Assembly: GCF_050320075.1 (NCBI RefSeq)
Contig: NZ_CP190018.1
DNA length: 64,000 nucleotides
From: Escherichia coli
Lineage (GTDB): Bacteria > Pseudomonadota > Gammaproteobacteria > Enterobacterales > Enterobacteriaceae
Direction: 5' to 3' (one strand)
Below, in pieces: positions 1-15,716 of the stretch. The notes beneath the pieces were generated by a model. The model did no database searches. It was not told where the DNA came from and saw nothing but the letters and a program-made list of their open reading frames with translations. Position 1 is the first letter of the stretch; every line of letters starts with the position of its first letter. The translations under genes were made by a program, and so were the position numbers.

Positions 1-575
1 GAATTGATTTTAGAACTCGCAGGATTCGCGCTATTACTGGCCTTGTGTGATGTTGTATTGTTCCCTTCGCCCGCTCCAGAATCTCCCCAGGTGGAGAAGA
101 CTAAAAAAGTCTTCTCTGTCAGCAACTTAAACAGTTACCTATTTAATTTGCTTAGGAGTTCTACCATTGTGATCCGCCCTTAGTAACTGTCACGTTAAGT
201 TACACGGTGAGATGACAGTATAACCTAACGTTGGCGGCAGTTGCACCTCTCACACCGCGATAGCACAACGTGAAGATAAAGCCCATCCTGGCATTGTAAT
301 GTCATCGACAGACTGAACACACGCATTTAAGCCCGATGTGCGGCCTTGTGGCTGCGTAAACAGGTTTATGGTGATATTGGTCCTTGCAAACCATATGCAA
401 GCTCTATCAGCGTTTCAGCCACGCTCCCAACGGGTACACGGTTATCCTGATAAGGTGTGATCTTTCTGACAATCTGATGAAGTCGCTACGCTCCCGCTTG
501 TTGCTGTATCACCAACGGGGCTTTATGGTTTCTATTGTCTATAATAATCTCACAATTCCCCTGCATGAGGTTGAT

Positions 576-782
576 ATGACTGTTAGCTACAAGATTACTT
601 ATGAGCATAGAGACGGTGATCAAATTAGAATGGAAGAGGTTTTATTCCATTCAGAGCATGAACCAACAAAAGATGAAATTCATGATGCAGTAAGAAAAGA
701 TACTGTGAGATTTAATTCTCCATCTAATGGAGTAACGGCTGTTTCAGGGTTTAAAGTGATTTCGGTTGTCCCTGTTCCATGA
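576..782 (+). CDS. hypothetical small protein (68 aa); short form of ORF 384..782
   Basis: GAGG Shine-Dalgarno 5 nt upstream of ATG at 576; the longer form starting at 384 has no ribosome-binding site. No recognisable family. Confidence 0.35.
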   Translation: MTVSYKITYEHRDGDQIRMEEVLFHSEHEPTKDEIHDAVRKDTVRFNSPSNGVTAVSGFKVISVVPVP

Positions 783-815
783 ATGGTTATAGAAGGGGCT
801 GGAAGCCCCTAATTA

Positions 816-1136
816 TTACTTCTTAATATCGCCAGTGCATTGATATTCGATAGTCACAAGTGTTTGCATACAACCAGATGAAGAAGGTTGTGAACATTGA
901 GAAGTGAATCCACCAAAAGGCTCGGCTCCTGAATATCCCCAAGCGGCACAACGCGCTTTGGCTGCATTCATGCCTTGTTGTGGATCTACAACAGGGCTTT
1001 CAAACATACCGTAAGAATAACTCATCCTAACTGTGCCGTCTGATTTGCTTCCACCAGTTGGAACGAGTTGTTTTTTTGTTGCACATCCAGAAATAATCAA
1101 TGTTGAAGCAAGTAACAGCATTAAACTTTTGCGCAT
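816..1136 (-). CDS. putative lipoprotein (106 aa)
   Basis: N-terminal signal peptide with lipobox-like LIISGC in MRKSLMLLLASTLIISGCATKK; convergent with 576..782. Confidence 0.6.
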   Translation of the reverse strand: MRKSLMLLLASTLIISGCATKKQLVPTGGSKSDGTVRMSYSYGMFESPVVDPQQGMNAAKARCAAWGYSGAEPFGGFTSQCSQPSSSGCMQTLVTIEYQCTGDIKK

Positions 1137-1788
1137 GTAAATAATCCCAAGAGATAATGGTTATGTATTGATTTAAAGCGTTTTTAGATTAATGCATTAA
1201 CTTAGCAAAATTAAGTCTTTTCTGATTGTTTGCAGAGTAAAAATGAGTTGCTTTCGAAATTATTTCGGATGTTTATTGTATTACGGTTTTTCAAACCGTC
1301 TAACTATTGTCGCTATTGAATGGGCAATAATAGCAAGAGGATTCATTTCGTCATTGGAGGCAACAAAAAGTCGGTAACTAATAGCCACAACGAATGCAGC
1401 AATAACGAGAAAGCGGATAGTGCTAAGATGTTTTGAAGATAAATGCATAACGCCCCCTAAATGAATGTGAGGGGGATTAAATCATGCAAATTTGTTATGT
1501 GCAATACTGGTAATTTATCCTAATAGTCTACTATTCACCTCAATCTACGTCAACCAATATTTGATGTAGATTTAATTTTCTTTTAAAAACAATATGTTGC
1601 AATTTGTTGGATTTTTGGGTTAGGTTGTTTTTTGAACGTTTCCATCAAGTGTAAAGATACGTTTAGCCTTCATAGTGAGTTCAGTTACTGTCTTTTTATC
1701 TGAAATCGGCGCAAACGTGATCATCGCTTAACGAGAAGATCAGCGCCGTCAGGTCCACGCGGCGACAACTCTGAAATATCAGGAGGCA

Positions 1789-2346
1789 TTACGCTTCCTG
1801 CTCTTTCTTGATACGTTGCACCGTCTGTGTGCTGACACTGAAATCTTTTGCTACGCTCCGAATTGATCCACCATTCGCGAGAGCGGCAGCAATTCCTGCT
1901 CGATCAATTGCTTTTCCATTACCACGTTTTGCTATACGTCCAGCGGCCTTAGCTGCGGCGATCCCTTCACGTTGACGCTCAAGCATCATTTCACGTTCCA
2001 TTTGTGCCACTGCTGCAAGCACTGTGAGCATCATATTCCCTGCGGGAGAGTTCTTCCCTGTCTTAAAGTCTTCTTTATGGAAATGCACAGACACGCCGCG
2101 CTCTGTTAATTGCTCAACCGTTGCCAGTAGGTCGGCTGTATTACGGCAAAGTCGATCAATGCTGTGAACATGCAAAACATCACCTTCCCGCACATAGTTC
2201 ATCATTGCCTCAAACTGTGGGCGCTGGGTATTTTTGCCTGACGCTTTATCTTCAAAGACTTTATCAAGAGTTACTCCAGCTAATTGACGGTCTGTGTTTT
2301 GTTGGACAGTCGATACCCTAATGTATCCAATATTAGCCATTTTCAT
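1789..2346 (-). CDS. serine recombinase (resolvase / DNA invertase family)
   Basis: N-terminal IGYIRVSTVQQ catalytic-serine motif, 185 aa, C-terminal helix-turn-helix-like tail; typical small serine recombinase architecture. Confidence 0.85.
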   Translation of the reverse strand: MKMANIGYIRVSTVQQNTDRQLAGVTLDKVFEDKASGKNTQRPQFEAMMNYVREGDVLHVHSIDRLCRNTADLLATVEQLTERGVSVHFHKEDFKTGKNSPAGNMMLTVLAAVAQMEREMMLERQREGIAAAKAAGRIAKRGNGKAIDRAGIAAALANGGSIRSVAKDFSVSTQTVQRIKKEQEA

Positions 2347-3265
2347 TTTCCTTCTGTGTTGATTTGTGTGTAGTGATTATTGATCGTGTTGATTAGGTGT
2401 GTAAAGGACTTTTTTCACTACGAAATTCGAAGGTTTTTAGTGTGGTGATTTAGCCTGCTTTATCACTACACGTCTTGCATGAGAATCATGTAGTTACATT
2501 TTGGTAAAATTAGCAAGCTATTAAATAGTGTGTTTATTTTGAAAAAATAATTTTTTGTTGCATTAAAGGAAACTTGTTCAATAAATGATAGAACGTTTAT
2601 TGAGCAACAATTTTGCAGTGATGCGCTATATGCCGCATTACATAAGGCTTTGCTGATGATAATGTAAAAGTGAAGAAAGCTAACATTGCTCTTTTAAGCT
2701 ACTTTTCATTGAATTTTTAGTATGGAATTACATAGGGATAAACTATGAATATTCTATGATTTACACGAGATATTCTTGCTGTTTAATTCCGGCTTTGGAG
2801 ATCAGGCATTCGCAAGAATACGCTAACGCGTTGCCTGAAAAGCCATTGCACATAATAGAGGTGAGCGTATAGCGAACTATCAATGTGATCATTGCACGAA
2901 TGATAATGAGTGGATATAGATTCTATATATCGTTAGATTGTAGTTTGATAGTTAATGTGTAATGTAGATTGTATGAGCGTATAGCGAATGTTAGTTAGAT
3001 CAACAACAAACTAACCTTTAAATCTCTTTTATCTTCTCATAGATATGGCTATGCGTAGCAACCGAAGGTTAGCCAATCATCTCTATGCAGCCGTAAGGCT
3101 GTTTTGCATGTAATAGTTGTTTGTTGTTGTTAGACAGTTACCAATTTATAGATCAGAGATAGATGTGAGCGTTGAGCGATACACTAATCATAACAACATC
3201 TTCTTACTTTTTAGTTAGTTGTTAGTAGGTTATTGTTATGCGCGCTATTAGCGCATGTATAAAGG

Positions 3266-3371
3266 TATCATTTTTATCTAAAGGGCTTTAGACATTTTTG
3301 ATACCTTTTTCATCTCTAAAAAAGTGTAATTTTTATCTAAAGGGGCTTTAGACATTTTTTACACCTTTTTC
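3266..3371. repeat. two direct copies of a ~45 bp repeat, each with palindromic core TCTAAAGG(G)CTTTAGA
   Basis: Copy 1 ~3266..3311 and copy 2 ~3327..3371 are near-identical; cores at 3277..3292 and 3337..3353; extra TCTAAAG half-sites near 3412 and 3487. Operator- or iteron-like. Confidence 0.6.
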
Positions 3372-3515
3372 TGTGCAAGACACTTACCAGTGTGCACAAT
3401 ACTTATGCTTTTCTAAAGCCGGGAATTTTTAAGTTTGATTGATCAATTGTTAACTTTAAAAGTTACTTTTAACAATCACTTAGACGATCTAAAGCCGCAA
3501 TTAACATAATATAAG

Positions 3516-3545
3516 TTGACATGCAAGCACTTTTTACCGTATAGT
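3516..3545 (+). promoter_or_regulatory. sigma70-like promoter candidate (TTGACA, 18 nt spacer, TATAGT)
   Basis: Perfect -35 hexamer at 3516..3521, -10 TATAGT at 3540..3545; transcription would start at the 23 bp tandem repeat. Confidence 0.4.
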
Positions 3546-3553
3546 GCGGGTTT

Positions 3554-3604
3554 CCTACCTACCCAGGAAATGAGTTCCTACCTACCCAGGAAATGAGTTC
3601 CTAC
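3554..3604. repeat. 23 bp tandem repeat CCTACCTACCCAGGAAATGAGTT, about 2.2 copies
   Basis: Exact copies at 3554..3576 and 3577..3599, partial third copy (CCTAC) following. Confidence 0.75.
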
Positions 3605-4556
3605 AATACTATAATTAAACTACAATTAAACTATCTTTTATAAATTCTTTTATCTTTTAAAGAATAATTATAGGGATACCCGTTAGGGAGTCTTCGACTA
3701 TCCCTTAATCTATTGGCATTCGCCAGAACCTTGCACAAGTTAGACTGATGCTTGTCATAACAGATAGTTTTTGTTTTTTGTTAGTAGTTAGCTGATCTAT
3801 GTTCGCTTTCCGCTCACAACGAATATGTAATCTACTATGTGCAAATAGCCTACGGCTTGCGTATGGCTAATAGTCTTGCGCTGTGCGCAGAACGATAATT
3901 AACTAACTACCATCTAACGATTGAAATTTACTTGTGCAATAACCTGAGCATAAGCGAATGGTTGTTAGTGTCTATGCGCTGTGCGCTTCAATAGTTCCAT
4001 TGATGAGGCTTACGCCAATCTAACGATCATCAATCTATTTAAGAGAAAATCTATTGTGCAATACTCTGACGAGTGCAATAACCTTGTGTGCTACGCGTTA
4101 GCGATGTTAGCACATAGACACAGACAACAACCAACAACAAACAAAAAAGAAAGAATGGTTTTAGTAGTTGAAGGTTAAATAAGTTTCTACCGCTTAAATC
4201 AAGCCGTAGGCGAGCTAAACGTATATAAGGTAGGGAAACACTTAGCGGTAATAGATTAGCTCGTTATAGAGCTTCTGAGGAGCTTTACAGGTATTTTATA
4301 AGATGTCTGAAATCAGAGTTTATCTATCCACCATCTTTCCATCATCTGATAAATCAAAAATAAGCCCCTTAAATAAGCCTCTGACGAGATAAACAACCTC
4401 TACATAAGGGAATGTATTGTTTTTATCAAAACCCCCGTCAGAGTGCGATTGAGAGCGTTTTAGACAACAGGGAAGAATTGTACCAGAGTAGGCAGCACAA
4501 AAAGCTAAGAAAAATTATAAGAAATTGAAAATGATCAAGTTTTTTATAAAAGAGGG

Positions 4557-4585
4557 TTGACAAAGCCGCCGTTATGTAGTATTGT
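4557..4585 (+). promoter_or_regulatory. sigma70-like promoter candidate (TTGACA, 17 nt spacer, TATTGT) for the plus-strand operon
   Basis: -35 at 4557..4562, -10 at 4580..4585; first ORF of a co-directional gene string starts ~115 nt downstream. Confidence 0.5.
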
Positions 4586-4701
4586 AAGTAGGGAGGGGAG
4601 AAACATCTCTCTCCATCTAAATAATCAAATCACAGAACACTGCACTTTGAGCCGTCAGGCTGCAAGGTGTGTTTTTCTTTTATCTAAATAAGGAGTTTTT
4701 T

Positions 4702-4884
4702 ATGAAATGGTATACACCGGAACACGTCGTAGAGGCATTTAAAAAAGGTGAGCTAACACGACATCAAGTAAGGATGAACAGGAACACAGCGCGGCGCTGT
4801 GGTTATCCAGAGCGTGAAAAATGCTTTGACGATGCACTAAAAATTATTGATGAACTGCGTAAGGCAGAAGCAGAGAAAGAATAA
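4702..4884 (+). CDS. hypothetical small protein (60 aa)
   Basis: AGGAG 6 nt upstream of ATG 4702 (MKWYTPEHV...); first gene after promoter 4557. Confidence 0.5.
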   Translation: MKWYTPEHVVEAFKKGELTRHQVRMNRNTARRCGYPEREKCFDDALKIIDELRKAEAEKE

Positions 4885-4907
4885 TAACAGGAGAAGGAGA
4901 AAACCAA

Positions 4908-5084
4908 ATGAATATTAATTTTGATTCTGCAACTTATAACGCGTTGTTAAATCGTGCAAAGGCAGAAGGGAAATCAATTCCAAAACTTGTTAATGAATTA
5001 CTAATTACAGTCCTTACAAAGGAGGAACTAAATGAACCAAAACACCAAAACAATTGCCGAAGCAAAAGCGCAATGCCTCAATAA
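4908..5084 (+). CDS. ribbon-helix-helix-like small DNA-binding protein (58 aa), not in ORF track
   Basis: GGAGAAGGAGA before ATG 4908; MNINFDSATYNALLNRAKAEGKSIPKLVNELL resembles CopG/Arc-type RHH N-terminus; 3-prime end overlaps the next gene by 53 nt in another frame. Confidence 0.45.
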   Translation: MNINFDSATYNALLNRAKAEGKSIPKLVNELLITVLTKEELNEPKHQNNCRSKSAMPQ

Positions 5085-5697
5085 GAAAGATAGTAAACAA
5101 ACATATGTAGTAGTTGAACAATGGCTGAAGATGTTTAAAAAGTGGTTCTCACCGTCAGGTAAGGAATACACCGCGACACTTCCAGCCGTTGAAATCTACA
5201 GTTACGTAGCTGGGTTCAATGAACAAGGGCAAGAATGTTACGCCAATCAAAAAACATTAGCTAATATTGGAATGGTTAGTGATCGTCAGGTGCGTAATAT
5301 TATAAATATGTTTATTGATATGGGTGTTCTTTCTGTAGAGGCACGGGACGGGCAAACATCACTCTATAAAGCATTACCCTTTACAGATGCACACATCACA
5401 CCACCGGAAGACGTAAAAACCTCTGTAAACGTAGAACAGCCTGCACCTGAAACACAGGAACCGTTAGAAGCGACACACTCTATTGAGCAGGAAACACAGG
5501 CAGAAATCACGGAACAATCTGATCTTTTTACATGGCTTATTTCCATAGACAGCCAAAAGCCTATGCAAGAAGAAACAGAAAATTTTATAAAACGTGCACT
5601 GACCTCGAAGAGGATAATTCTTGAAGATGATGCTTTTAATGCACTGATGATAGCCCTGAGAAAAGAAAGTGAAATCTATGACTCAATACCATTTTAA
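5032..5697 (+). CDS. hypothetical protein with winged-helix-like N-terminus and acidic C-terminus; possible replication initiator or organiser
   Basis: Strong AAGGAGGA before ATG 5032; segment ANQKTLANIGMVSDRQVRNIINMFIDMGVLS resembles winged-helix DNA-binding domains of phage/plasmid Rep-type proteins. Assignment is by resemblance only. Confidence 0.45.
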   Translation: MNQNTKTIAEAKAQCLNKKDSKQTYVVVEQWLKMFKKWFSPSGKEYTATLPAVEIYSYVAGFNEQGQECYANQKTLANIGMVSDRQVRNIINMFIDMGVLSVEARDGQTSLYKALPFTDAHITPPEDVKTSVNVEQPAPETQEPLEATHSIEQETQAEITEQSDLFTWLISIDSQKPMQEETENFIKRALTSKRIILEDDAFNALMIALRKESEIYDSIPF

Positions 5698-5709
5698 GGA
5701 GAATAAAAA

Positions 5710-5967
5710 ATGAAATACAACCTGACATTAAACAAACGAACATTCGAAATTACAGAAAGCGGCTACACACTGGCAAAACAGCTTGCTGATAGCAATTATG
5801 AGCTACCCGCGATTATCAGCTTTCAGGAGTTACCTCATAGTAAAGAACACACACAGCACTGGTTAAATCACCTGAGCCATTTTGGGGTAATTAAGTATGA
5901 GGCTGTGAATAGTCAGACGTTCCGTTTGCTTGAGATAAGCCCTTTCGAATTGTGGGTGGCGCTGTGA
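5710..5967 (+). CDS. hypothetical protein (85 aa)
   Basis: ORF track; GGAG upstream; co-directional operon member. Confidence 0.5.
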   Translation: MKYNLTLNKRTFEITESGYTLAKQLADSNYELPAIISFQELPHSKEHTQHWLNHLSHFGVIKYEAVNSQTFRLLEISPFELWVAL

Positions 5968-6170
5968 CCATATTCGATAGCGAATTTTCACAAGAAACCT
6001 TTCTGCAATATTTACGGGAAAGAACGGGAATGATTCTGTTTGATTCTGAGTTTTCCGGTGTGGTAGGTGAGCAATTTTTATATGCTCTTCTCGATAGCCT
6101 AAGTAAACAAGGATTATTGCAGTATACCAAAACTCATATGAAAGCATTCAGAATCGACTCTGTAGCTTAA
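5952..6170 (+). CDS. hypothetical protein (72 aa, GTG start) with internal FDSEFS...FL.Y.L duplication
   Basis: ORF track; start codon is GTG overlapping the upstream stop; internal ~45 nt direct repeat at DNA level. Confidence 0.3.
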   Translation: MGGAVTIFDSEFSQETFLQYLRERTGMILFDSEFSGVVGEQFLYALLDSLSKQGLLQYTKTHMKAFRIDSVA

Positions 6171-6206
6171 AACAAACAACTATCAAACATCTTGAAGGGT
6201 GAAACA

Positions 6207-6347
6207 ATGGAAAGCTTAATATTTTTCTTAGTATTTATGATCGCTTCCTTTTTTAACACTGCAACAAGAAAAACAAAACGAAGGGGAAGCAATGAGCAAG
6301 AAAAAAGGCAAGAAAAACGTAATAACAACTATTGGCGAAGCATGTGA
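6207..6347 (+). CDS. candidate small single-pass membrane peptide (46 aa), not in ORF track
   Basis: ATG 6207 after AAGGG; MESLIFFLVFMIASFF hydrophobic helix then a basic tail (RKTKRRGS...); overlaps the start of ORF 6292 in another frame, so only one of the two may be real. Confidence 0.25.
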   Translation: MESLIFFLVFMIASFFNTATRKTKRRGSNEQEKRQEKRNNNYWRSM

Positions 6348-6672
6348 TCAGTATGCGTTAAACAATCCTCGCAAATATAATTATGAGCATGATGCACAAC
6401 CAGGCGAGGAATTGATCTTTATACTTGAAGAACCAAGCCCAGAATTAACAGACGAAGAATTATCACTCATTCAAAGTATGGACGGTGTTTACTTTAATCC
6501 GCGCCCACGCAAAACAACGGTTATAGATTCCAGTCTTCTGAAAAGATGGCAGTGTTTGGGTTTTCAGGATATGCACCACTTTAGGGGGTATATGGCTCTT
6601 AACAGTCTGCAATATGCAGGGGTGAGAGAAACCGAATTACTTCTGCTTGATAAAATAAAAATCGACGATTAA
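6292..6672 (+). CDS. hypothetical protein (126 aa)
   Basis: ORF track; AAGGGGA 5 nt upstream of ATG. Confidence 0.5.
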   Translation: MSKKKGKKNVITTIGEACDQYALNNPRKYNYEHDAQPGEELIFILEEPSPELTDEELSLIQSMDGVYFNPRPRKTTVIDSSLLKRWQCLGFQDMHHFRGYMALNSLQYAGVRETELLLLDKIKIDD

Positions 6673-6713
6673 CAGCGTTTGCTGAATATAACCCTTAACA
6701 AAAGGAAAATAAA

Positions 6714-6935
6714 ATGATTAACAAAGCAATTTTAGAGACAACCACTTTTCACGATCTTAAACTTCTTTCTGAATGCTTCATAAGCCTGATTGAACGTGCA
6801 CAGGAAGAAAACGATCTCGGTTTACTCGATGATATTATAGACAACATTGCAACTTATAAAATCCCGCTCACTATTGCTATGAAGAAAGCTCGTGAAGCAC
6901 AACAACAATTAGAACAATCAGAGGAAGTGGCATAA
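6714..6935 (+). CDS. hypothetical protein (73 aa)
   Basis: ORF track; AAGGAAA before ATG; co-directional. Confidence 0.45.
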   Translation: MINKAILETTTFHDLKLLSECFISLIERAQEENDLGLLDDIIDNIATYKIPLTIAMKKAREAQQQLEQSEEVA

Positions 6936-7243
6936 TGAGCGAAGTACACAACGTAACTATTGAAATGATGGATCTGGTTATTGATTTACAGAAAGCAGTA
7001 AACGCGGCTCTGACTTTTCCAAGCGAGCTAACCATCACACAGGCGGTTATTAATCTGGAATCGACGCGGGAAGCACTGCAACTACTTATTGCAGCGTGCG
7101 AAGAGAGCGAAGGTGCACAGATTGAAGCTGATGACCTTTCTAATCTGATCATCGTCATTCATGACACCACTGAAATCATGAAAGAAGCGGTAGCAGATCT
7201 GCAACCCCTCATTAATGAATTAATCGATAAGGCTAACAACTAA
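6935..7243 (+). CDS. hypothetical acidic protein (102 aa)
   Basis: ORF track; start overlaps upstream stop (ATAATG), suggesting translational coupling. Confidence 0.5.
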   Translation: MSEVHNVTIEMMDLVIDLQKAVNAALTFPSELTITQAVINLESTREALQLLIAACEESEGAQIEADDLSNLIIVIHDTTEIMKEAVADLQPLINELIDKANN

Positions 7244-7452
7244 TGTCAAAAACTAAACGTGTGCGCCTTCTGGCGCTCACAGAAGAAGGGAAAGCGGGTA
7301 ATTGTTTCACAGTAGGTAAAGTGTATACCGGCTTACTCGACACTTACACCCGCCTGATGCACGTAACCGATGATAACGGTAACGATCAAACAATCGTTTT
7401 AGATGGTAATTGCGTATTTGGTGAGTGGGAACTGACAACCGAAAAAAGTTGA
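7243..7452 (+). CDS. hypothetical protein (69 aa)
   Basis: ORF track; start overlaps upstream stop (TAATG). Confidence 0.5.
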   Translation: MSKTKRVRLLALTEEGKAGNCFTVGKVYTGLLDTYTRLMHVTDDNGNDQTIVLDGNCVFGEWELTTEKS

Positions 7453-7471
7453 AAATAATTGCATTTACCTA

Positions 7472-7500
7472 TTGACTTTTACTAACAGAAATGTTAGAAT
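7472..7500 (+). promoter_or_regulatory. near-consensus sigma70 promoter (TTGACT, 17 nt spacer, TAGAAT)
   Basis: -35 at 7472..7477, -10 at 7495..7500; followed by ~820 nt without any ORF of 60 codons or more on the plus strand. Confidence 0.55.
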
Positions 7501-7506
7501 AATAAA

Positions 7507-8291
7507 TGTTGGGTTTGGAATCGAAAATAGGTGTTAGCTGGCGTTAATCCTTCTCCCGATTCTAATCCTACACGAAAGCGGGGTAGACCTCAAGGGGTCG
7601 CGCCCTATCTAACCTATCCCGCTTTCCCTTTACAGTGATTTTTTAGAAATTGTTTCCCTCGTTAATAGTTTCATTTTATTTTCCTTATTGCTTTATCAAA
7701 ATTGTGTCTTAAGAATGCAGGGGCTACGGATTTGGCCCCTCATCTTTTTAACCAACTGCGAAGCATGAAACACTTTCTAAAAACACTGTTTACAGTGTCT
7801 ATAAACCCCGTATAAACAAATAACGGTGTATATCTGTTTCTTGACAACAGTTTTCTACTAAGCTTAAAGCTGAATATGTTTTTGTTTGTTGGTGTTTATT
7901 AAGGTGCCAATCTTAGAACGCGAAAGCGTGGATGATCCCCGAAATCATCTCGGCACCGCCTCCTATTAAAATGAGAATCCAAAAGGTTTGAAAGTTAATA
8001 GGTGATTCCTGAAAGTCTGATCGATGCATCCACATTGTGAAAGACAGCGATTAGCCGTCGCACGAATAACAGGTTTATAGATTCCTCTCCAAAGGGGGCG
8101 ACCTCCTAAGCGCCTACTCCCTGTAAGCCTGTTATTCACCCCTCAAGGGTATATAACAATAAGCAATCTTATTCTTATATGTCCTCCTCTTTAAGTTCAT
8201 ATAAACTGCGATTTAGTAACACTCTATAACATCCTTCAAATGTTGTATTCATAAAGCCGGAAGCTTTCCCCTTCCGGTTTTATTTTTATCA
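7507..8291 (+). ncRNA. candidate structured leader or noncoding RNA region
   Basis: ORF-poor; stem-loops at 7575..7626 (GAAAGCGGG / CCCGCTTTC), 7719..7749 (AGGGGC, 10 nt loop, GCCCCT then T-run) and 8065..8136 (AATAACAGG / CCTGTTATT); ends at terminator 8257..8291. Boundaries and function are inferred. Confidence 0.3.
8257..8291 (+). terminator. rho-independent terminator-like hairpin (CCGGAAG, loop, CTTCCGG, then T-run)
   Basis: Inverted repeat with following TTTTATTTTTAT, just upstream of the 8331 ORF. Confidence 0.5.
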
Positions 8292-8330
8292 GCACTAAAC
8301 AAGACTGTTAGGAATAAAGGTAAAGCAATA

Positions 8331-8546
8331 ATGCAAAATCTCATTCTAAAGAATGGTAACGAAGAATTGGTTATCACTGATGAAACATTCAATGCTACGG
8401 CTTATATGCTGGGGATCACTCCCACAGAATTGAAAAAACATTGTGATAAGCTTTTTAAGTCTGCTGATGAACAGAAACCTACTATGCAGGATCTGATTAA
8501 AGCAAAAGCAGAACAAATCAAACAATCCAAAAAAGGAAACTATTAA
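8331..8546 (+). CDS. hypothetical protein (71 aa)
   Basis: ORF track; immediately precedes the capsid-like gene pair. Confidence 0.5.
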   Translation: MQNLILKNGNEELVITDETFNATAYMLGITPTELKKHCDKLFKSADEQKPTMQDLIKAKAEQIKQSKKGNY

Positions 8547-8548
8547 TT

Positions 8549-8920
8549 ATGGCTATTATTAATATGAGCGATCTGTTTCCAGTTCGCAAATCATTTACCG
8601 ATATCGTTTCATATGCAACTGATGAGTTCGGTTGTGTGCAATCTTTTACCGTTGATCTGGCGGTTGATGTTGAATGCGGCGATCTGATTACCAGTGACGG
8701 CGCTGAATATGTAAGCGGCGGCGATGTTCTTGTAGTTGTGTCTGATGCGGTATCCGCTGGCGACGCTAAAACCGTTAACGTGCTGCGTAGCAATGCCGGA
8801 CTGGTTTGCATCAAGTCCGATGCTCTGAATGTTGAAGGCGCTGTGAAAGAAGCTGCTATTGCTGCCCTGGCTGCAAAAGGTTTCCAGATGGCTGGTTTTA
8901 ACACTGTATTCACATCTTAA
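8549..8920 (+). CDS. putative virion structural protein (123 aa), possibly head-decoration-like
   Basis: Small Gly/Ala/Val-rich protein directly upstream of and coupled to the 342 aa gene; codon usage is strongly biased toward highly-expressed E. coli codons. Resemblance to a lambda D-type decoration protein is by size and arrangement only. Confidence 0.4.
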   Translation: MAIINMSDLFPVRKSFTDIVSYATDEFGCVQSFTVDLAVDVECGDLITSDGAEYVSGGDVLVVVSDAVSAGDAKTVNVLRSNAGLVCIKSDALNVEGAVKEAAIAALAAKGFQMAGFNTVFTS

Positions 8921-8938
8921 TATAAAGGAATAAAAATA

Positions 8939-9967
8939 ATGATTATTGGTAATGAATCCGTCGATCTGGCTCCGCTGTTTAGTCTGCACGACTCTCGCAA
9001 CTTCCTGTTAACTTCTCTCGACTTTACTGATCCGGTAGGTGTGAGTTCTCATAAAGTGGCTGTTAGCCAACTGGTGGAAACTAACGAATCTCTGTTCAAC
9101 AAAGAAACCTCTCGTTTCTCTTCTGAACATAACGTGACTAAACGTGAACAGGGTAAAGAATTTTTAGTAGAGATCCCCTACTTCCTGCGTGAAGATATGA
9201 TTAAGCCGCAAGACGTGCAAGGCAAACGTAAACCAGGCGCTACCGTTGAAGAAACTCTGACAGATATCTACGCGGAATATGTTGCTAAGCACCACATTGC
9301 TTTCCAGCGTACTAAAGAAAGCGTGCTGGCTGCTTCCCTGTTCTCTGGTCGCACTTACACCCCTAAAACTGATGATGTGCTGATCCAGTGGGGCGATCTG
9401 TTTAGTGTTGTTCCGATGACTGCAACCATCGACGCATCAAGCACCACGCCTTCTATGGTGTTCCAGCAATTCGATCAGATGCATACAGACGTTATTACTA
9501 AAGCACAAAGCCAGGCGGCTGCTGTAGAACGTATCGTTGTATTCTGTAAACCTGCTGCTTTCAACGCTATCCGTTACAGTGCTGGCATGGTTAACGCGTT
9601 CCAGTATGCAAGCCCTACCGATGACGCAAACATCGTTTATAGCGTGCGCTCCCTGCTGCCAGGTGTGACTACCTTCACTATTCCTGGGACTAACATCGAT
9701 ATCGTTAAAGTTACTGATCCGCTGCTGCTGGCTCATATGACTTCTGATGCGGTTGCTGTTCCGAAGTTCGCTAAAGGCTCTAACGTCTATCAGAACATTT
9801 TCAGCGCTCCTTCTTCAACGTTCGACCTGCTGAATTCTGGCGCGGCTGAATATTACAGCTATGCGTTTAGCCCAGCACGTAACGACGCTGTAAACGTAGT
9901 TACTGAGAATAGCCAGATGGTTGTAAACCACGGCGTAGGCTTCACTGTACAGATCACAGTAGCGTAA
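8939..9967 (+). CDS. putative major capsid-like protein (342 aa)
   Basis: Size and position (after a ~120 aa protein) resemble a lambda D/E-type head gene pair; AAGGAA RBS; codons strongly optimised (CGT, CTG, TCT, AAC, GAA) unlike neighbouring genes. Not confirmed by homology. Confidence 0.45.
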   Translation: MIIGNESVDLAPLFSLHDSRNFLLTSLDFTDPVGVSSHKVAVSQLVETNESLFNKETSRFSSEHNVTKREQGKEFLVEIPYFLREDMIKPQDVQGKRKPGATVEETLTDIYAEYVAKHHIAFQRTKESVLAASLFSGRTYTPKTDDVLIQWGDLFSVVPMTATIDASSTTPSMVFQQFDQMHTDVITKAQSQAAAVERIVVFCKPAAFNAIRYSAGMVNAFQYASPTDDANIVYSVRSLLPGVTTFTIPGTNIDIVKVTDPLLLAHMTSDAVAVPKFAKGSNVYQNIFSAPSSTFDLLNSGAAEYYSYAFSPARNDAVNVVTENSQMVVNHGVGFTVQITVA

Positions 9968-10120
9968 TAAAGCGTTAATAGTCGTTTCCTGTGCGACTGG
10001 AAATAAAACAGGCAATAAGGGCAAAAGGGATTATTAAACCTGTAGCGCAAATACAGTAAACAATCTCTTTTGCCCTTTTTTCGTTTATACCGTCTATTAA
10101 AATATTGTGAGAGAAAAATC

Positions 10121-10312
10121 ATGAGCGAACAAAACAACAATCCAGTTGAGATCCTGAAAGCTGTTTCCACCTTACCGGAAGATATTCTGAATATCTCTCA
10201 AGTGTGTAAGTTTTTAGGGATCTCTAATACTGCTGTACGTCAAAGAATCTTCACTACTGGCTGCTCAGCTATGGAAGCAGTGCAATACTACGTAACAAAA
10301 CAAAACAAATAA
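10121..10312 (+). CDS. hypothetical small protein (63 aa), possible HTH
   Basis: Internal ATG of ORF 10070..10312 (MSEQNNNPVEIL...); segment ISQVCKFLGISNTAVRQRI is helix-turn-helix-like. Confidence 0.35.
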   Translation: MSEQNNNPVEILKAVSTLPEDILNISQVCKFLGISNTAVRQRIFTTGCSAMEAVQYYVTKQNK

Positions 10313-10330
10313 AAGGTAAAGGAAAATATT

Positions 10331-12172
10331 ATGGATTTAAACATCTCAACCTTAACAAACAAGGTTGTATTTAAAGTTGATTTTGCATCATTACAGAAAG
10401 CAAGGGACGCAGGGAAGAAATTTCAGAAAGAAATGGAAAACCTAACCAATCCAACATTGAAAGGGAAGAAGGCTAAACGAGCTATAGACGAGGCTCATGA
10501 TCTGGTAAAGGCTCGTAAAGCTGCACAGGCTAAAACTGATGCCAAAGCGTCAGACAAGCAAGCTCAAACCGATAAGAAGAACGCTGATAAGGTGGCAAAG
10601 GCAGAAGCTAAAGCGAAGGCTAAAGCCGCTATAGCTGCCGATAAACAGATCCGCGCTAAAGCGACAATAGCAGAGAAAGCAGAGATTAAGCGCCAGCAAG
10701 CTTTCAGACAGCTTGAAGGGATTAAGAAAGGGCGTATGGGCGACGGTATGGACTCCGCCCAATACTACAAAACGTTGCAATACATCAAAGCACAAACGGC
10801 AGCGTATGAGAAAGGCGCTATTAGTCAGGCTAAGATGAATCACCTGATCCGTGATCGTATCACGTTAGAACGCCGTGCGGCTGCTGTAAAAGCTCGCCAG
10901 GTGGCGGCTGATGGCGGTAAATATCCACATATGGCTAAACAGCTTAAAGGCGGTCATATAGGCGGTGGTGTAGGTGCAATGGTGGGCGGTGCCGCTCTCA
11001 CTGCTGCCACTCTCGGCGGTGCTGCGATATTCAATACCGTAACCGATCAGGCAAGCAAGATCACAGACACTAACCGCAAGGCAAAGGCTGTCAACGTAAA
11101 CACTAACGCCCTGTTAGCACTTAATCAGTACGGCTTAGAACACGGTGTCGATAGTTCCGTAGACCAACGTCAAGACAACCTTAAAGACGTTCAAGAGCGT
11201 TTAGGTGAATCCGTAGGGAATACCAAATGGGACGCTAAGAAAGGTCGCTGGGCTGGCGGTAATGGTGCCGTCGATAACATCCTTAATAAATATGGTTGGA
11301 GTCCTGAACAGATTAAAGGTTTCCAGACTGATCCATTAGGTTTCCTGGGCGCTGTAGTGAAAGAAGGAGAACGCCGTGGACTCTCTGATCAGGAGCAGGG
11401 TCACATCCTTGAAGACCTTGGAAATGATTTACAATATTTCCGTGGTGCTTTCAGTCGTAACGGTGAAGAGCTAAATAAAACCATCGTTAAGATGCAAAAA
11501 GCCAATGCCACCTATGCGCAAGCGGATCTTGACGCTGCTGAACGTCTGCAAGCTGTACAGGCTAATATGAATATGGCCTGGGAAGGTAGTAAGAAAGCTA
11601 TCATGACGGGATTCGGTGAAGAGTTCGACGCTCAGGCTGGTGAAGAGTGGGCGCAAATGTTGAAAGATCTCAATCCTCTGTTTAAAGAACTTGGAAGCTC
11701 AACGGCTGAAATGATGAGCGCCTTTGCTGGTGCTGTATCGTGGCTTACTGCTGCATACCAGAATATAAATCCAGAGAACAAACATGAAAACCTTGATTCG
11801 TCCGGTATGTATTATAAGGATTCGTTTGTAGGCGGCATGGTTGATTGGGGTCGTAGTGCTTTAGGCTTATCGCCTATCCCTGGCACGGAAGACAAGCCAA
11901 CGACTGGCGGAACTGCAATTCAGAACTATTCAAGCCCGTCCGATAACGTGCAATCCCTGAAAGAGAACGTTAGCCGTGATCTGAACACTACCCCATCTAT
12001 GACGTATGCGCCAAGCATTGTCGTAAACGTGCCAGAAAGTAAGGTTGATGTGAATATCGCTCCTGATGGTAGTCAGCTTGGATCATACCTCGATTACAAA
12101 GTGGGAAGTATCCAACAAGATTTTGAACGTAGTTTCACGTTGGCGGCTCTGTCTGGGCAAGCACCAAGTTAA
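10331..12172 (+). CDS. large coiled-coil / glycine-zipper protein (613 aa); tape-measure-, scaffold- or DNA-pilot-like
   Basis: Lys/Ala-rich coiled-coil stretch (KAKAKAAIAADKQIRAKATIAEKAEIKRQQ), then glycine-zipper hydrophobic segment GGHIGGGVGAMVGGAALTAATLGGAAIF. Function inferred from composition only. Confidence 0.5.
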   Translation: MDLNISTLTNKVVFKVDFASLQKARDAGKKFQKEMENLTNPTLKGKKAKRAIDEAHDLVKARKAAQAKTDAKASDKQAQTDKKNADKVAKAEAKAKAKAAIAADKQIRAKATIAEKAEIKRQQAFRQLEGIKKGRMGDGMDSAQYYKTLQYIKAQTAAYEKGAISQAKMNHLIRDRITLERRAAAVKARQVAADGGKYPHMAKQLKGGHIGGGVGAMVGGAALTAATLGGAAIFNTVTDQASKITDTNRKAKAVNVNTNALLALNQYGLEHGVDSSVDQRQDNLKDVQERLGESVGNTKWDAKKGRWAGGNGAVDNILNKYGWSPEQIKGFQTDPLGFLGAVVKEGERRGLSDQEQGHILEDLGNDLQYFRGAFSRNGEELNKTIVKMQKANATYAQADLDAAERLQAVQANMNMAWEGSKKAIMTGFGEEFDAQAGEEWAQMLKDLNPLFKELGSSTAEMMSAFAGAVSWLTAAYQNINPENKHENLDSSGMYYKDSFVGGMVDWGRSALGLSPIPGTEDKPTTGGTAIQNYSSPSDNVQSLKENVSRDLNTTPSMTYAPSIVVNVPESKVDVNIAPDGSQLGSYLDYKVGSIQQDFERSFTLAALSGQAPS

Positions 12173-12228
12173 TGATAAAGAGAATGTTTAATCACCATTT
12201 AAAACACTCTTATAAGGAATTAAGCATA

Positions 12229-12259
12229 TAAGAGGCTCCCATTACAAGGAAGCCTCTTT
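12229..12259. terminator. bidirectional terminator-like hairpin between convergent 613 aa gene and integrase
   Basis: Inverted repeat AGAGGCT(CC) ... (GGA)AGCCTCT flanked by A/T-rich runs. Confidence 0.4.
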
Positions 12260-12279
12260 ATTGCGCCTATGGCGTTGTT

Positions 12280-13441
12280 TTAAGCCTTAAAATCAATATT
12301 TAATTCATATCTTACTAATTCTACATATTCAGCTAATTCTGGAATGCTTGCCCCTTGTGAGTAGGTGCGAAAGGCTTCTGTTTTAGCTCTCTGCTCTGTA
12401 TGTCCGGTAATGGCACCGATCCGCTGTTCAGGCACTCCGGCACGATCAAGACAAGTGATAAACATCCCGCGCAAGCTGTGAAAGCATTGTCTATTTGTAG
12501 CGATTGGCAAGACGCTACGACGTAAACGTGAGAACGCTTGAGAATAGAACGGGCCTTTCTTACCGTCGATTCTTTTTACTTTGTTCGAGTGAGGGAACAA
12601 ATATTCACCATAATTATGATTTAAATATTCATCGACAATAATCGATAGTCTCGAATGTATCGGAACGTGCCTGATCCCTGCTTTAGTCTTACTTTTGCTG
12701 ATATAAAAACAGCGTATTCCTTCCACAGTTACAACCTCTGACTTTTTCAGACTTGCCAGTTCGTCTAATCTGCATCCTGAAAACAAGCCCATTAAAATAA
12801 TATTTCTGATCTCCGGCTCCGCTGCATCAAGTAGCTTTTGCATTTGTTCAGGTGTAAACGGTTGATAACTCTCGATTGTGCGACGTGCTTCGAGATTATG
12901 ACCGTGAAAAGGGTTACTGTCTGGTATTCCGTCATAACGGCGTTTAGCAAATTCATAGAGCGATCCTAAGCATGTAAGCCAGTTTTGACGAGATTGATCG
13001 GCTGCTCCTCGTTGCTTCTGGTCATCTAAGAATACTGTTACAAGCCGTCTGCCTATTTTCTCAATATGAATATCATCTTTCTGAATGCTTTGTAAAAATA
13101 GCTCAACGGCCCTTGCTGATTTCTGTAGTGTTGAGTATGAACGACGCTCTCTGTAGCATTCGGCGTATTCGTCACGTATTAAGCATAGGGAAGGCGATGC
13201 ATAACCGCGTTTTACGGCTCTTTGCGTGTTTTTATTGGCCCTTGCCTCTGAATGTAAGGATTCAATAGCTTGTTGTAACCTCCTTTCGGGGTTATCAGGA
13301 TTATGTTTCCGCTTTAGTTCCTCCCATTCTAATAATAGATGGTTTCTGAATCTTCTCGCCTCATTCAGATCTCGTGTAGATGTGCTTTTTCTCCACAACT
13401 TGTAAGGGTAAAGATGACGTAAGTATTTAGGAACAAAAATC
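12280..13441 (-). pseudogene. tyrosine recombinase / integrase with 5-prime end disrupted by IS1
   Basis: C-terminal catalytic motifs of tyrosine recombinases (R in GCRLDEL, HSLRGMF, GHTEQ...FRTYSQG). The ORF's first 5 codons (to 13455) lie inside the IS1 inverted repeat, so the native start and promoter are missing. Confidence 0.8.
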
Positions 13442-13496
13442 GGTGATGCTGCCAACTTACTGATTTAGTGTATGATGGTGTTTTTGAGGTGCTCCA

Positions 13497-13772
13497 GTGG
13501 CTTCTGTTTCTATCAGCTGTCCCTCCTGTTCAGCTACTGACGGGGTGGTGCGTAACGGCAAAAGCACCGCCGGACATCAGCGCTATCTCTGCTCTCACTG
13601 CCGTAAAACATGGCAACTGCAGTTCACTTACACCGCTTCTCAACCCGGTACGCACCAGAAAATCATTGATATGGCCATGAATGGCGTTGGATGCCGGGCA
13701 ACCGCCCGCATTATGGGCGTTGGCCTCAACACGATTTTCCGCCATTTAAAAAACTCAGGCCGCAGTCGGTAA
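13497..13772 (+). CDS. insA: IS1 InsA
   Basis: 91 aa product matches remembered IS1 InsA ([32 protein letters not shown]...). Confidence 0.95.
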
Positions 13773-14194
13773 CCTCGCGCATACAGCCGGGCAGTGACGT
13801 CATCGTCTGCGCGGAAATGGACGAACAGTGGGGATACGTCGGGGCTAAATCGCGCCAGCGCTGGCTGTTTTACGCGTATGACAGGCTCCGGAAGACGGTT
13901 GTTGCGCACGTATTCGGTGAACGCACTATGGCGACGCTGGGGCGTCTTATGAGCCTGCTGTCACCCTTTGACGTGGTGATATGGATGACGGATGGCTGGC
14001 CGCTGTATGAATCCCGCCTGAAGGGAAAGCTGCACGTAATCAGCAAGCGATATACGCAGCGAATTGAGCGGCATAACCTGAATCTGAGGCAGCACCTGGC
14101 ACGGCTGGGACGGAAGTCGCTGTCGTTCTCAAAATCGGTGGAGCTGCATGACAAAGTCATCGGGCATTATCTGAACATAAAACACTATCAATAA
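13691..14194 (+). CDS. insB: IS1 InsB reading frame (expressed as InsAB by frameshift)
   Basis: 167 aa ORF overlapping insA in the -1 frame, typical IS1 organisation. Confidence 0.9.
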
Positions 14195-15111: not shown

Positions 15112-15129
15112 AAAAAAGAGGCTTTAGGT

Positions 15130-15633: not shown

Positions 15634-15716
15634 ATATTTTTATGTGTAGGATTGAAGGAAAGGAACGAGATACTAATATATTCAGTATCTCGTTAATCAT
15701 TTAAGTGGTCAATTAT

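Follow-up and report, generated by a model that had tools for sequence, protein, structure and literature searches.

The leftmost 13 kb of the window, the 64,000-nt stretch of Escherichia coli DNA analysed here, raise the question of whether a short run of phage-like genes represents a functional mobile element or the debris of one and, if the former, which phage it depends on. A first-pass annotation had wavered between a phage satellite that encodes a capsid and a decayed prophage of an unfamiliar family. In the analysis below the former gains ground and the latter loses it. The unfamiliarity stands, as profile scans of the ORFs against PHROG, NCBIfam and Pfam returned no close full-length match to a characterised prophage, PICI or P4 family. 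With moderate confidence, we interpret region 61-13441 as one copy of a 12-14 kb integrative phage satellite that has been immobilised by IS1 (Table 1).

Table 1. Features of the element and its borders, in window coordinates
Feature	Position	Strand	Remarks
Left boundary	61..78	+	18 of the 22 bp of the att core (TTCCCTTCGCCCGCTCCA), the tRNA-Gly glyU 3' end
att-proximal arm	79..535		91% conserved with Klebsiella elements, only in relatives with the same integrase type
85 aa hypothetical protein	525..782	+	Variable cargo (cargo block 525..1448)
YecR-family lipoprotein	816..1136	-	Variable cargo; recurs in distant members L034-L039
55 aa ORF	1281..1448	-	Variable cargo
Small serine recombinase, resolvase/invertase type	1789..2340	-	phrog_125, 2e-62
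ORF-poor control region	2347..4701		2.35 kb; ORFs of at most 66 aa, no gene called by RefSeq; several repeat families
Conserved block	2544-2766		Inside the ORF-poor region
59-nt semi-palindromic tandem repeat	3258-3371		Copy number polymorphic
Promoter-like site	3516-3545		Inside the ORF-poor region
23-nt x2.3 tandem repeat	3552-3604		Candidate iterons or operators
Early promoter	4557-4585		Strong sigma-70-type (predicted)
Leader terminator	~4640-4690		Predicted, ahead of the early operon
g60	4702..4884	+	First early-operon gene; family core gene
RHH-like 58 aa protein	4908..5084	+	Absent from RefSeq annotation; 89% identical to an ORF in Justusliebigvirus VEcB
Rep-like initiator, 221 aa	5032..5697	+	Winged-helix HTH_36 DNA-binding domain; phrog_270 replication initiator
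Small early gene	5710-5967	+	
Small early gene	5964-6170	+	
g126	6292-6672	+	Core gene
Small early gene	6714-6935	+	
Small early gene	6935-7243	+	
g69, 69-aa protein	7243-7452	+	phrog_27862; 43% identical to a protein in most Phapecoctavirus genomes
Regulatory gap before the late operon	7453..8330	+	Promoter-like site 7472-7500; terminator hairpins 7719-7740, 8251-8283
g71	8331..8546	+	First late-operon gene
Head-decoration protein homologue, 123 aa	8549..8920	+	Distant profile relatives and fold match
Major capsid protein, lambda gpE type, HK97 lineage, 342 aa	8939..9967	+	PF03864; phrog_29
g63	10121..10312	+	Conserved between capsid and tape-measure genes; weak sub-threshold helix-turn-helix signals
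Tail tape-measure protein homologue, 613 aa	10331..12172	+	Residues 134-611 align to phi92 gp134
Tyrosine integrase	12280..13455	-	DUF6538 and Phage_integrase type; phrog_1, 4e-37; element part 12280..13441
IS1	13442..~14209	+	Left inverted repeat starts at 13442; right end approximate; not element DNA

Boundaries and integration sites

The left boundary, previously thought to lie outside the window, is contained in it: base 61 is where similarity to 33 other complete genomes sets in, and bases 61-78 are the final 18 nt of a 22-bp att repeat derived from the 3' end of the tRNA-Gly gene glyU. In an intact copy (L013) the complete repeat occurs at 2997-3018 and 16556-16577 and encloses a 13.56 kb unit, and in a relative (L009) a repeat of at least 52 bp bounds 12.3 kb. 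Att-bounded elements span 12.3-13.6 kb, and the integration sites in the family comprise the glyU 3' end, a LysR gene and, for one member, a site that follows a tRNA-Leu gene at a distance of about 0.3 kb. The intact copies are discrete mobile units with an integrase and defined ends, the window copy being devoid of attR. Since the att-proximal arm is conserved only in relatives with the same integrase type, its sequence points to it being probably an integrase arm or attP region. A second 19 kb island, unrelated to the element, occupies this tRNA in tandem on the upstream side of base 61, and bases 61-78 form the junction with it; the large proteins of that island gave no match to defence models.

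On the right, the present edge of the window copy is formed by IS1. The first ~59 nt of the integrase gene, the promoter region and attR have been removed by it, and the adjacent ETT2 genes are missing alongside attR. On account of the loss of the integrase 5' end and attR, the window copy is probably immobile. The idea that the element replaces the ETT2 secretion-apparatus block proved mistaken: in other strains it sits at glyU beside ETT2 remnants. A circular or episomal form, as derived from a 12,344-nt Logan contig, was rejected, because the contig begins and ends inside the att repeat and thus reflects an assembly break.

Distribution and conservation of the family

The family is present in 388 of 5,426 complete E. 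coli genomes (~7%), with at most three copies in each, all of them chromosomal, and near full-length decoration and capsid genes were recovered from 374 E. coli genomes. Carriers in this species include O26, O111-type and other pathogenic lineages; strains H3 (NZ_CP010167) and 2015C-3101 (NZ_CP027221), for instance, have intact copies, and O26:H11 11368 has the other subtype. Further members occur in Klebsiella, Citrobacter, Enterobacter, Cronobacter and Serratia. The gene order is kept across the E. coli, Klebsiella and Citrobacter loci, and a set of core genes is common to the 37 loci compared. Further, the genes of the element show dN/dS values of 0.12-0.25 with dS above 1, indicative of purifying selection. 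Full-text literature searches found no description of the element family, nor of any satellite of phAPEC8/phi92-like phages; the family is hence widespread in enterobacteria and apparently undescribed. None of the loci retrieved from IMG/VR is an element-sized contig and several derive from isolate genomes, and they therefore do not amount to evidence for virions.

Recombinases and the ORF-poor region

Both the tyrosine integrase and the serine recombinase recognised in the first-pass annotation are confirmed by strong profile matches. In the Klebsiella and Citrobacter relatives the small serine recombinase gives way to a tyrosine recombinase of about 200 aa. Since the ORF-poor region adjoins a recombinase gene, either of the serine invertase type or for a tyrosine recombinase the size of FimB, an invertible switch was considered. 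No inversion was seen among four close copies, which align colinearly and vary solely in how many units of the 59-nt repeat they contain. Multimer resolution is an equally possible role for the recombinase.

The ORF-poor region itself, put at 2.2 kb in the earlier reading, is of comparable extent and indeed holds only short, unannotated ORFs and repeats. By k-mer sharing, the 23-nt repeat is the sole block common to three loci with the same Rep domain, and might tentatively be regarded as the iterons of the cognate Rep. This assignment is tentative as the repeat is also found in one locus with a different Rep. An Rfam scan of 1-14500 at E<=1 detected no known RNA family, and the non-coding segments 2340-4710 and 7452-8331 had no DNA match to phages.

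The early operon

Behind the early promoter and the leader terminator follow g60, the RHH protein, the winged-helix Rep-like initiator and several small proteins, in agreement with the string of small proteins of no recognisable family, among them an RHH-like and a Rep-like one, that had been listed beforehand. Beyond its DNA-binding domain, the Rep-like protein displays an acidic linker and a C-terminal ...YDSIPF tail which resembles the C-terminus of SSB. No significant Pfam match was obtained for g60, and g126 had neither a Pfam match nor, with its AF2 model (pLDDT 72), a fold match in the PDB. The promoter, leader and terminator unit proposed earlier is recovered in the gap before the late operon, which bears a promoter-like site and two hairpins. 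Most family members have a terminator at the same place, 50-80 nt ahead of the first late gene, and the leader and pre-late terminators are both positionally conserved.

The late operon encodes virion proteins

The late operon, insulated by a terminator, runs from g71 through the head-decoration, major capsid and g63 genes to the tape-measure gene, and in some relatives it additionally contains a tube initiator. Its 123 aa and 342 aa products had been described as a capsid-like pair, which is borne out by their assignment as decoration and capsid homologues. The case for the capsid is straightforward: PF03864 is matched by the capsid proteins of all family members, the 342 aa protein aligns over its full length to the major head protein of anhysbys, a phAPEC8-type phage (E=2e-12), and the A1 capsid profile matches the solved chains 9zbi_A (1e-15) and phi92 gp124 (3e-15). 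For the 123 aa protein, direct BLASTP detected no similarity to the phage decoration protein, and a sequence profile search of the PDB also found nothing. The link thus had to be made through profile and fold evidence, namely distant profile relatives in phrog_2680, the family of the phage decoration protein, and best fold matches to head-decoration proteins (E=1.5e-5). No significant Pfam match was found for g63.

The 613 aa protein, previously read as a coiled-coil/glycine-zipper protein, is a tape-measure homologue, matching phrog_16051 at 2e-64, anhysbys gp254 with 29% identity over 476 aa, and chain V of PDB 21vq, i.e., Phi92_gp134, at 1e-46. The gene of the phage homologue is flanked by those for the tail chaperone and the tube initiator, and the protein itself is seen in the solved tail of phi92. 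In the window copy's protein, the N-terminal ~130-230 residues have no phage match. The tube initiator of the relatives shares 56% identity with the phage gene that immediately follows the tape measure and matches phi92 gp135 in the PDB at 2e-78. Hence, of the first-pass statement that terminase, portal, protease and tail genes are all lacking, the first three items hold and the last, on account of the tape measure, does not.

Across all listed ORFs, PHROG, NCBIfam and Pfam searches recovered decoration, capsid and tape measure as the only virion genes, with no match to a portal, terminase, prohead protease, tube, baseplate or lysis protein. A portal, large terminase or sheath would require an ORF longer than any in the element, and neither a small terminase nor a pac or cos site was identified. 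The same ORF listing and searches uphold the view that the element is not self-sufficient, with no complete set of virion and lysis genes in it.

A link to phAPEC8/phi92-like phages

The phage homologues of the tape measure, tube initiator, Rep DNA-binding domain, RHH protein and 69-aa protein are confined to phAPEC8/phi92-like myoviruses of ~150 kb (Stephanstirmvirinae). Three divergent tape-measure alleles each match 134 of 50,697 phage records, whose tallies by organism and host hardly differ from allele to allele; among these, the records listed all have genomes of ~142-161 kb, with taxonomy checked for anhysbys, muut and VEcB. Likewise, all 70 records matching the small early proteins belong to this phage group, as judged from organism name and genome length. 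Identity to the phage homologues reaches 75% for the Rep DNA-binding domain, 89% for the RHH protein and 43% for g69, and the Klebsiella-type tape measure is 42% identical to the protein of these phages. The capsid is at most 26% identical to that of any phage record (24-26% to the capsid of the putative helper), and its search also retrieves 137 phages of Pseudomonas at a comparable level. It is accordingly the tape measure, tube initiator and small proteins, along with a phage nuclease, that chiefly support the helper assignment. In line with the link, the GC content of the element (40.8%) is well below that of its host (50-51%) and nearer to that of phAPEC8/phi92-like phages (37-39%).

In this nuclease, which a few of these phages encode, the element's Rep DNA-binding domain is present twice and is joined to a GIY-YIG-type domain. 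Phages muut, BI-EHEC and Mt1B1_P17 have it, and anhysbys lacks it. In phage muut, gp094 has the architecture HTH_36 + HTH_36 + MUG113/T5orf172-like nuclease. Of its DNA-binding domains, the second shares 75-91% identity with the Rep allele found in the present element type and the first 65% with another Rep allele of the family; the linker closely matches one of other family Rep proteins. Odn, the anti-PLE nuclease of ICP1, follows a similar plan (PMC8263062). Taken together, these affinities make it fairly probable in our estimate that the family is a new group of phage satellites exploiting phAPEC8/phi92-like virulent phages.

Alternative explanations

The same genes could instead constitute an anti-phage defence island, whose capsid, decoration, tape-measure and tube-initiator homologues poison or decoy the assembly of phAPEC8/phi92-like phages and which spreads by other means than satellite transmission. 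The restriction of the homologues to one phage lineage, the lipoprotein cargo gene recurring in distant members and a phage nuclease apparently aimed at the element, implying that the element harms the phage, would all suit such a role, and interference of mobile elements with phage tail assembly has precedent (PMC11364771). However, no PADLOC model was convincingly matched (one marginal ZorA, E=0.002); the Rep, the integrase, the att sites and at least three integration sites indicate an actively mobile, replicating element; and a full-length capsid and decoration pair under the observed constraint (dN/dS ~0.12-0.25) exceeds the needs of a decoy. This explanation, which can overlap with that of a satellite, appears unlikely to us. 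We assign a lower probability still to an integrative element that depends on another, unsampled helper group, such that the likeness to Stephanstirmvirinae would record old gene exchange only. The weak capsid identity, the Pseudomonas phages matched at similar levels and the tape-measure N-terminus without phage match fit this idea. Nevertheless, the Rep domain (75-91%), RHH protein (89%), tube initiator (56%) and Klebsiella-type tape measure (42%) argue for recent exchange with Stephanstirmvirinae, and it is phages of this group in which the chimeric nuclease resides.

Finally, a tRNA-site integrase accompanied by a few structural genes without the rest, in a copy visibly damaged by IS1, might be taken for what chance alone has preserved of a decayed temperate prophage akin to phAPEC8-like phages. 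We consider this very improbable. A satellite is favoured over it because the same minimal gene set and order lie between precise att repeats in several genera, the genes are under purifying selection (dN/dS 0.12-0.25) and some phages carry a nuclease of an anti-element type. Decay also sits poorly with the 374 E. coli genomes holding near full-length decoration and capsid genes and with a closest phage capsid relative at 26%.

Comparison with known satellites

The satellite reading invites comparison with PLE of Vibrio cholerae, which likewise is a chromosomal island exploiting a large virulent myovirus (ICP1), as is proposed for the element, and has a replication initiator with swappable DNA-binding alleles. 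PLE integrates by means of a large serine recombinase and has a RepA_N initiator, as against the tyrosine integrase, HTH_36 initiator, own capsid, decoration and tape-measure proteins and enterobacterial hosts of the present family. Common to both is a chimeric nuclease in the helper lineage, which joins a satellite Rep domain to a T5orf172/GIY-YIG-type domain as in Odn (PMC8263062); unlike in that case, the nuclease described here has two DNA-binding domains matching two alleles. PLE is reported to remodel hijacked ICP1 coat proteins into small capsids via its protein TcaP (PMC10002752). In employing its own HK97-lineage capsid protein in place of such helper remodelling, the element resembles the cf-PICIs, which are also enterobacterial. 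These are described as encoding all of the machinery for heads and packaging (portal, protease, adaptor/connector and terminase) with only tails supplied by the helper (10.1101/2022.09.08.507074; 10.1101/2025.02.19.639094). The present element, in contrast, has only capsid and decoration genes for the head, with tail-core genes in addition (the tape measure with or without the tube initiator). No member of the cf-PICI head and packaging set (portal, prohead protease, adaptor/connector, terminase) was detected, nor is there room for it between the att sites.

Classical PICIs carry an integrase, AlpA/Stl-type regulators and a primase/helicase replication module, and have no structural genes of their own. 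The element differs in having structural genes and a 221 aa HTH_36 protein as its Rep, with no AlpA or primase found in it by PHROG, NCBIfam and Pfam. With P4-like satellites it shares a size of 11-14 kb, tRNA integration by a tyrosine integrase and expression that is apparently terminator-gated in leader regions, as is the case in P4 immunity. P4, however, uses the capsid protein of its helper P2, and that helper is temperate, whereas the element has its own capsid protein and a putative helper that is virulent; no element protein has a PHROG or Pfam match to Sid, Psu, Delta, Eps or the alpha primase-helicase. To our knowledge the well-studied E. coli satellites (P4, PICIs and cf-PICIs) all need temperate helpers. 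Virulent-helper cases are known in PLE-ICP1 and the PICMIs of marine vibrios, both from Vibrionaceae. Own encapsidation genes are further reported for the Streptomyces satellites of the Mulch/Flayer systems (PMC10690885). These are unrelated in host phylum, gene content and life style, and no sequence relationship was found.

A possible life cycle and its implications

In the proposed cycle, infection by a phAPEC8/phi92-like virulent myovirus would lead to the terminators being overcome and the element excising. Rep could then bind the repeats of the ORF-poor region and recruit the replisome, possibly via its SSB-C-terminus-like tail. The element's capsid and decoration proteins might build small heads for ~13 kb of DNA, with portal, scaffold/protease and terminase coming from the helper, and the tape measure, with the tube initiator if present, would join tails made by the helper, yielding either satellite-specific tails or spoiled helper tails. 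As we know of no satellite that encodes a tape measure, its role in this one is conjecture. Particles would be freed by helper lysis, resulting in transfer of the element. The element would harm the phage, and some phages might respond with a nuclease that bears the element's own Rep DNA-binding domains and is aimed at its origin. In its fullest form, the proposal is of an unrecognised class of satellites, hosted by E. coli and related bacteria, that lives at the expense of large virulent myoviruses, contributes its own capsid shell and tail core to chimeric virions, and has had its Rep domains captured by phages into a dual-specificity, origin-directed nuclease; to this whole we would give even chances.

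If it is true, origin-directed anti-satellite immunity would have a second, independent case in the dual-domain phage nuclease, and the questions would arise of how a foreign capsid protein uses the portal and scaffold of the helper and why a satellite carries a tape measure. It would also bear on therapy with phAPEC8/phi92-like phages, in terms of both resistance and unintended gene transfer. A tractable satellite/virulent-phage system would then exist in the main model organism, in ~7% of the complete genomes of E. coli.

Virion proteins of the glyU-associated element

By profile (PF03864, found on all homologues, and phrog_29), the 342 aa protein of the element is a major capsid protein of the lambda gpE type. 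Phapecoctavirus anhysbys, one of the ~150 kb virulent phAPEC8/phi92-like myoviruses, has a major head protein that aligns with it from end to end (24% identity, E=2e-12), and the family capsid profile matches solved capsid chains, phi92 gp124 among them. The best solved-structure match of this profile is chain A of PDB 9zbi, a 344 aa 'Capsid protein' (E=1e-15), which scores slightly better than phi92 gp124. By BLASTP, the 123 aa protein and the phage decoration protein show no similarity. Its distant profile relatives lie in phrog_2680 'head decoration', which also includes the product of the gene immediately 5' of the phage capsid gene, and the best fold matches of its AF2 model (pLDDT 71) are head-decoration proteins (E=1.5e-5); on these profile relatives and fold matches, it is predicted to be a head-decoration protein.

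The 613 aa protein matches phrog_16051 (2e-64), chain V (Phi92_gp134) of a solved phi92 structure (1e-46) and, with 29% identity over 476 residues, anhysbys gp254, whose gene has the tail chaperone on one side and the next tail gene on the other; these relationships identify it as a predicted tape-measure protein. In many relatives the tape-measure gene is followed by an extra gene, absent from the window copy, for a Dit-like tube initiator, which shows 56% identity to the phage gene directly 3' of the phage tape measure and matches Phi92_gp135 (2e-78).

A syntenic family in several enterobacterial genera

The capsid homologues within E. coli form clusters at 97, 80 and 78% identity, one of them with 2,818 member sequences, and others occur in Klebsiella, Citrobacter, Enterobacter, Cronobacter, Dryocola and Serratia. 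Gene order is retained in the K. pneumoniae and C. freundii loci and in the second E. coli subtype: a small recombinase, an ORF-poor region, early genes including the Rep-like gene, a gap and a small gene are followed by decoration, capsid, a further small gene, tape measure, the optional tube initiator and the integrase. E. coli loci have a serine enzyme as the small recombinase; in Klebsiella and Citrobacter its place is taken by a tyrosine recombinase of ~200 aa. Across 37 loci the core comprises the small genes g60 and g126 together with decoration, capsid, tape measure and integrase, and between-subtype dN/dS is 0.12-0.25 with dS >1. Of 5,426 complete E. coli genomes, 388 carry the decoration and capsid genes, in up to 3 copies and always on the chromosome. 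The second E. coli subtype, 12.3 kb long and flanked by a repeat of at least 52 bp, lies inside a LysR-family gene; the Klebsiella copy lies at tRNA-Gly and the Citrobacter element ~0.3 kb downstream of tRNA-Leu. The element thus belongs to a family and is not debris.

The first-pass annotation had left open whether this DNA was a phage satellite or a decayed prophage of an unfamiliar family. Of the two readings, the sequence data support the satellite over the decayed prophage, in view of the syntenic family, the low dN/dS and the att-bounded units.

Boundaries and damage of the window copy

Window positions 1-14000 are identical in E. coli YZLc1-3 (NZ_CP123240.1). The same DNA is present in 33 other complete E. 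coli genomes at 99.5-99.9% identity, and the match spans exactly 61-13441 in all of them. The integrative element initially placed at 1-13441 is real, with its boundaries now corrected. In those 33 strains xdhA and actS lie upstream, the element is directly 3' of the glyU tRNA-Gly, and ETT2 remnants or other islands follow. Strain H3 carries two copies of a 22-bp direct repeat, TCGATTCCCTTCGCCCGCTCCA, one being the tRNA 3' end and the other ~90 nt past the integrase start codon, which bound a unit of 13.56 kb. In the window copy the left repeat is reduced to 18 nt, and on the right, where the IS1 inverted repeat begins, ~59 nt of the integrase gene start, the region upstream of the integrase and attR are missing. 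With only the att remnant left and attR and the integrase 5' end lost, the window copy is very probably immobile.

The proposal that the element replaces the ETT2 apparatus block does not hold, since other strains keep ETT2 remnants beside it (pseudogenes in strain 700462). The apparatus genes are absent from the window, and this loss is an IS1-associated deletion, the absence of the genes beside IS1 being consistent with an IS1-mediated event. At window 13442-16000 IS1 adjoins a LuxR-type regulator, a lytic transglycosylase, ygeH and ygeG.

Window 1-60 forms the end of a second island (~19 kb), which is unrelated to the element and inserted in tandem with it at one and the same tRNA-Gly. It encodes an integrase, AntA/B, BRO-N, an Icd-like protein, a DUF927 primase, SSB, ProQ/FinO and PerC, as well as four large cargo proteins (844, 686, 918 and 104 aa). 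PADLOC returned no match for the 686, 918 and 104 aa cargo proteins or for a nearby 151 aa ORF. This island looks like a P4/PICI-type element with cargo of no recognised function. Another tandem satellite-like array is seen in Citrobacter freundii, where a P4-like island immediately follows the family member.

Features of the element and of related loci (window positions unless a locus is named)
Feature	Position	Strand	Content
att repeat remnant	61-78		18 nt
Variable cargo segment			85 aa protein, YecR-family lipoprotein, 55 aa ORF
YecR-family lipoprotein	816-1136	-	
Small serine recombinase	1789-2340	-	
ORF-poor region			2.35 kb
59-nt semi-palindromic tandem repeat	3258-3371		
Early-operon promoter	4557-4585		TTGACA-17-TATTGT, near-consensus
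Early operon			g60, RHH-like protein, 221 aa Rep-like protein, six small proteins
RHH-like ORF	4908-5084	+	58 aa
Rep C-terminus	5674-5697		
Gap before late operon			880 nt; promoter-like site and two terminators
Late operon			g71, 123 aa protein, 342 aa capsid protein, g63, 613 aa protein
Integrase gene			last in element order
IS1 inverted repeat	from 13442		
RHH homologue of phage VEcB	L041 2501-2686		intact 61 aa ORF
muut gp094	L040 2635-3633 = NC_052657.1 81258-82256		332 aa; two HTH_36 domains, then MUG113/T5orf172-like domain
Second island	L042 20462-39730 = NZ_CP123240.1 1065461-1084729		between tRNA-Gly and element
P4-like island, C. freundii	L007 15544-21032		Arm-DNA-bind_3 integrase, AlpA, DUF5375, Zn-ribbon/Toprim/DUF927 primase

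Relationship to Stephanstirmvirinae phages

The tape-measure alleles of the window element, the second E. coli subtype and the Klebsiella subtype share just 25-32% identity with one another. Of 50,697 phage records, each allele matches 134; the organism and host tallies of the three are near-identical, and the genomes among the matches listed are all ~142-161 kb long. Identity to phages rises to 42% for the Klebsiella allele. Three of the 134 (anhysbys, muut and VEcB) had their taxonomy retrieved, and all are Stephanstirmvirinae. Five matching records labelled 'Campylobacter phage' (MG065639, MG065645, MG065650, MG065656 and MG065689; ~146-151 kb) have the same tape-measure identities and scores as E. 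coli phAPEC8-like phages, so that their host labels look doubtful.

The concatenated small early proteins match 70 phage records, all of the same group as judged from organism name and genome length. The Rep DNA-binding domain recurs at 75% identity in muut, inny, BI-EHEC and Mt1B1_P17, and g69, the last early gene, at 43% in most Phapecoctavirus genomes. Further, the RHH protein has an 89% identical counterpart in Justusliebigvirus VEcB, which may reflect capture of the element's regulator by the phage. The GC content is 40.8% in the element, 50-51% in the flanking chromosome and 37-39% in the phage segments.

Rep-like proteins, an anti-satellite nuclease candidate and proposed operon control

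The sole domain match of the Rep-like protein is HTH_36, with weak matches to replication-initiator PHROGs. The RHH-like ORF overlapping its gene start lacks RefSeq annotation and is kept in relatives. Family Rep proteins are mosaics that combine common linker and C-terminal modules with one of at least five or six DNA-binding domain types. The last residues of most are ...DFDIPF, ...YDSIPF or ...STIPF (in the window and in L009, L014, L026 and L031), which we take to resemble the acidic C-terminus of E. coli SSB; this suggests that the Rep tail recruits SSB-binding replisome proteins.

Related domains occur in gp094 of phage muut. Of its two DNA-binding domains, the second shares 75% identity with that of the window Rep and 89-91% with those of L014 and L026, and the first 65% with the L031 Rep and 40% with the L009-type Rep; the inter-domain linker is close to one in L009- and L019-type Reps. 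The nuclease-like domain also matches phrog_681 'endonuclease' (2e-18) and is similar to putative homing endonucleases from a wide range of unrelated phages; only about five or six phage records hold the full chimera. The same architecture, a Rep-type DNA-binding domain joined to a T5orf172-type domain, is found in Odn of phage ICP1, whose N-terminal domain is 42% identical to the PLE RepA DNA-binding domain and which cuts the PLE origin (PMC8263062). With each DNA-binding domain matching a different Rep allele, gp094 is a candidate dual-specificity, origin-directed anti-satellite nuclease, and its Odn-like architecture may be taken as a sign that infection by these phages is accompanied by replication of the element, at a cost to the phage.

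The early promoter is followed by a ~100 nt leader ending in a hairpin and T-run just before g60, a layout found in most relatives, also where the sequence differs. In an alignable group the leader shows compensatory changes at two stem pairs, both from the same two sequences. Ahead of the late operon, a terminator hairpin keeps its place, 50-80 nt before the first gene, but its sequence is not conserved. We infer from this anatomy that termination would hold both operons off in the integrated state, and that helper infection would open them.

The ORF-poor region carries candidate Rep or repressor sites. A 23-nt tandem repeat (x2.3), directly 3' of a strong promoter-like site, is the sole repeated block common to the three loci with the window Rep domain, and is also present in one locus with another Rep. 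The 59-nt repeat, a further candidate site, has one copy fewer in 2013C-3513 and FORC_028 than in the window. Among the cargo, the YecR-family lipoprotein recurs at 76-87% identity in the distant members L034-L039, whose other genes show just 30-60%; it could have a surface-exclusion function.

Comparison with known satellites

Structurally, the element fits the general definition of a satellite. By gene content it falls outside the P4-like elements, classical PICIs, cf-PICIs and PLE, sharing with the cf-PICIs the capsid alone. In apparent mode it is nearest to PLE-ICP1, with a virulent myovirus as putative helper and a candidate origin-directed phage nuclease, and to the cf-PICIs, with a capsid protein of its own. 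Unlike either, its head genes encode shell proteins only, and it adds tail-core genes, which no other satellite is known to carry. In the full-text literature searched, which leaves out most subscription journals, no satellite with tail-core genes was found, and neither this family nor a satellite of these phages is described. Induction, capsid size, the tape-measure role and transfer of the element are matters of inference. Most likely, the element represents a new satellite family of phAPEC8/phi92-like virulent phages, of which the window holds an IS1-disabled copy.
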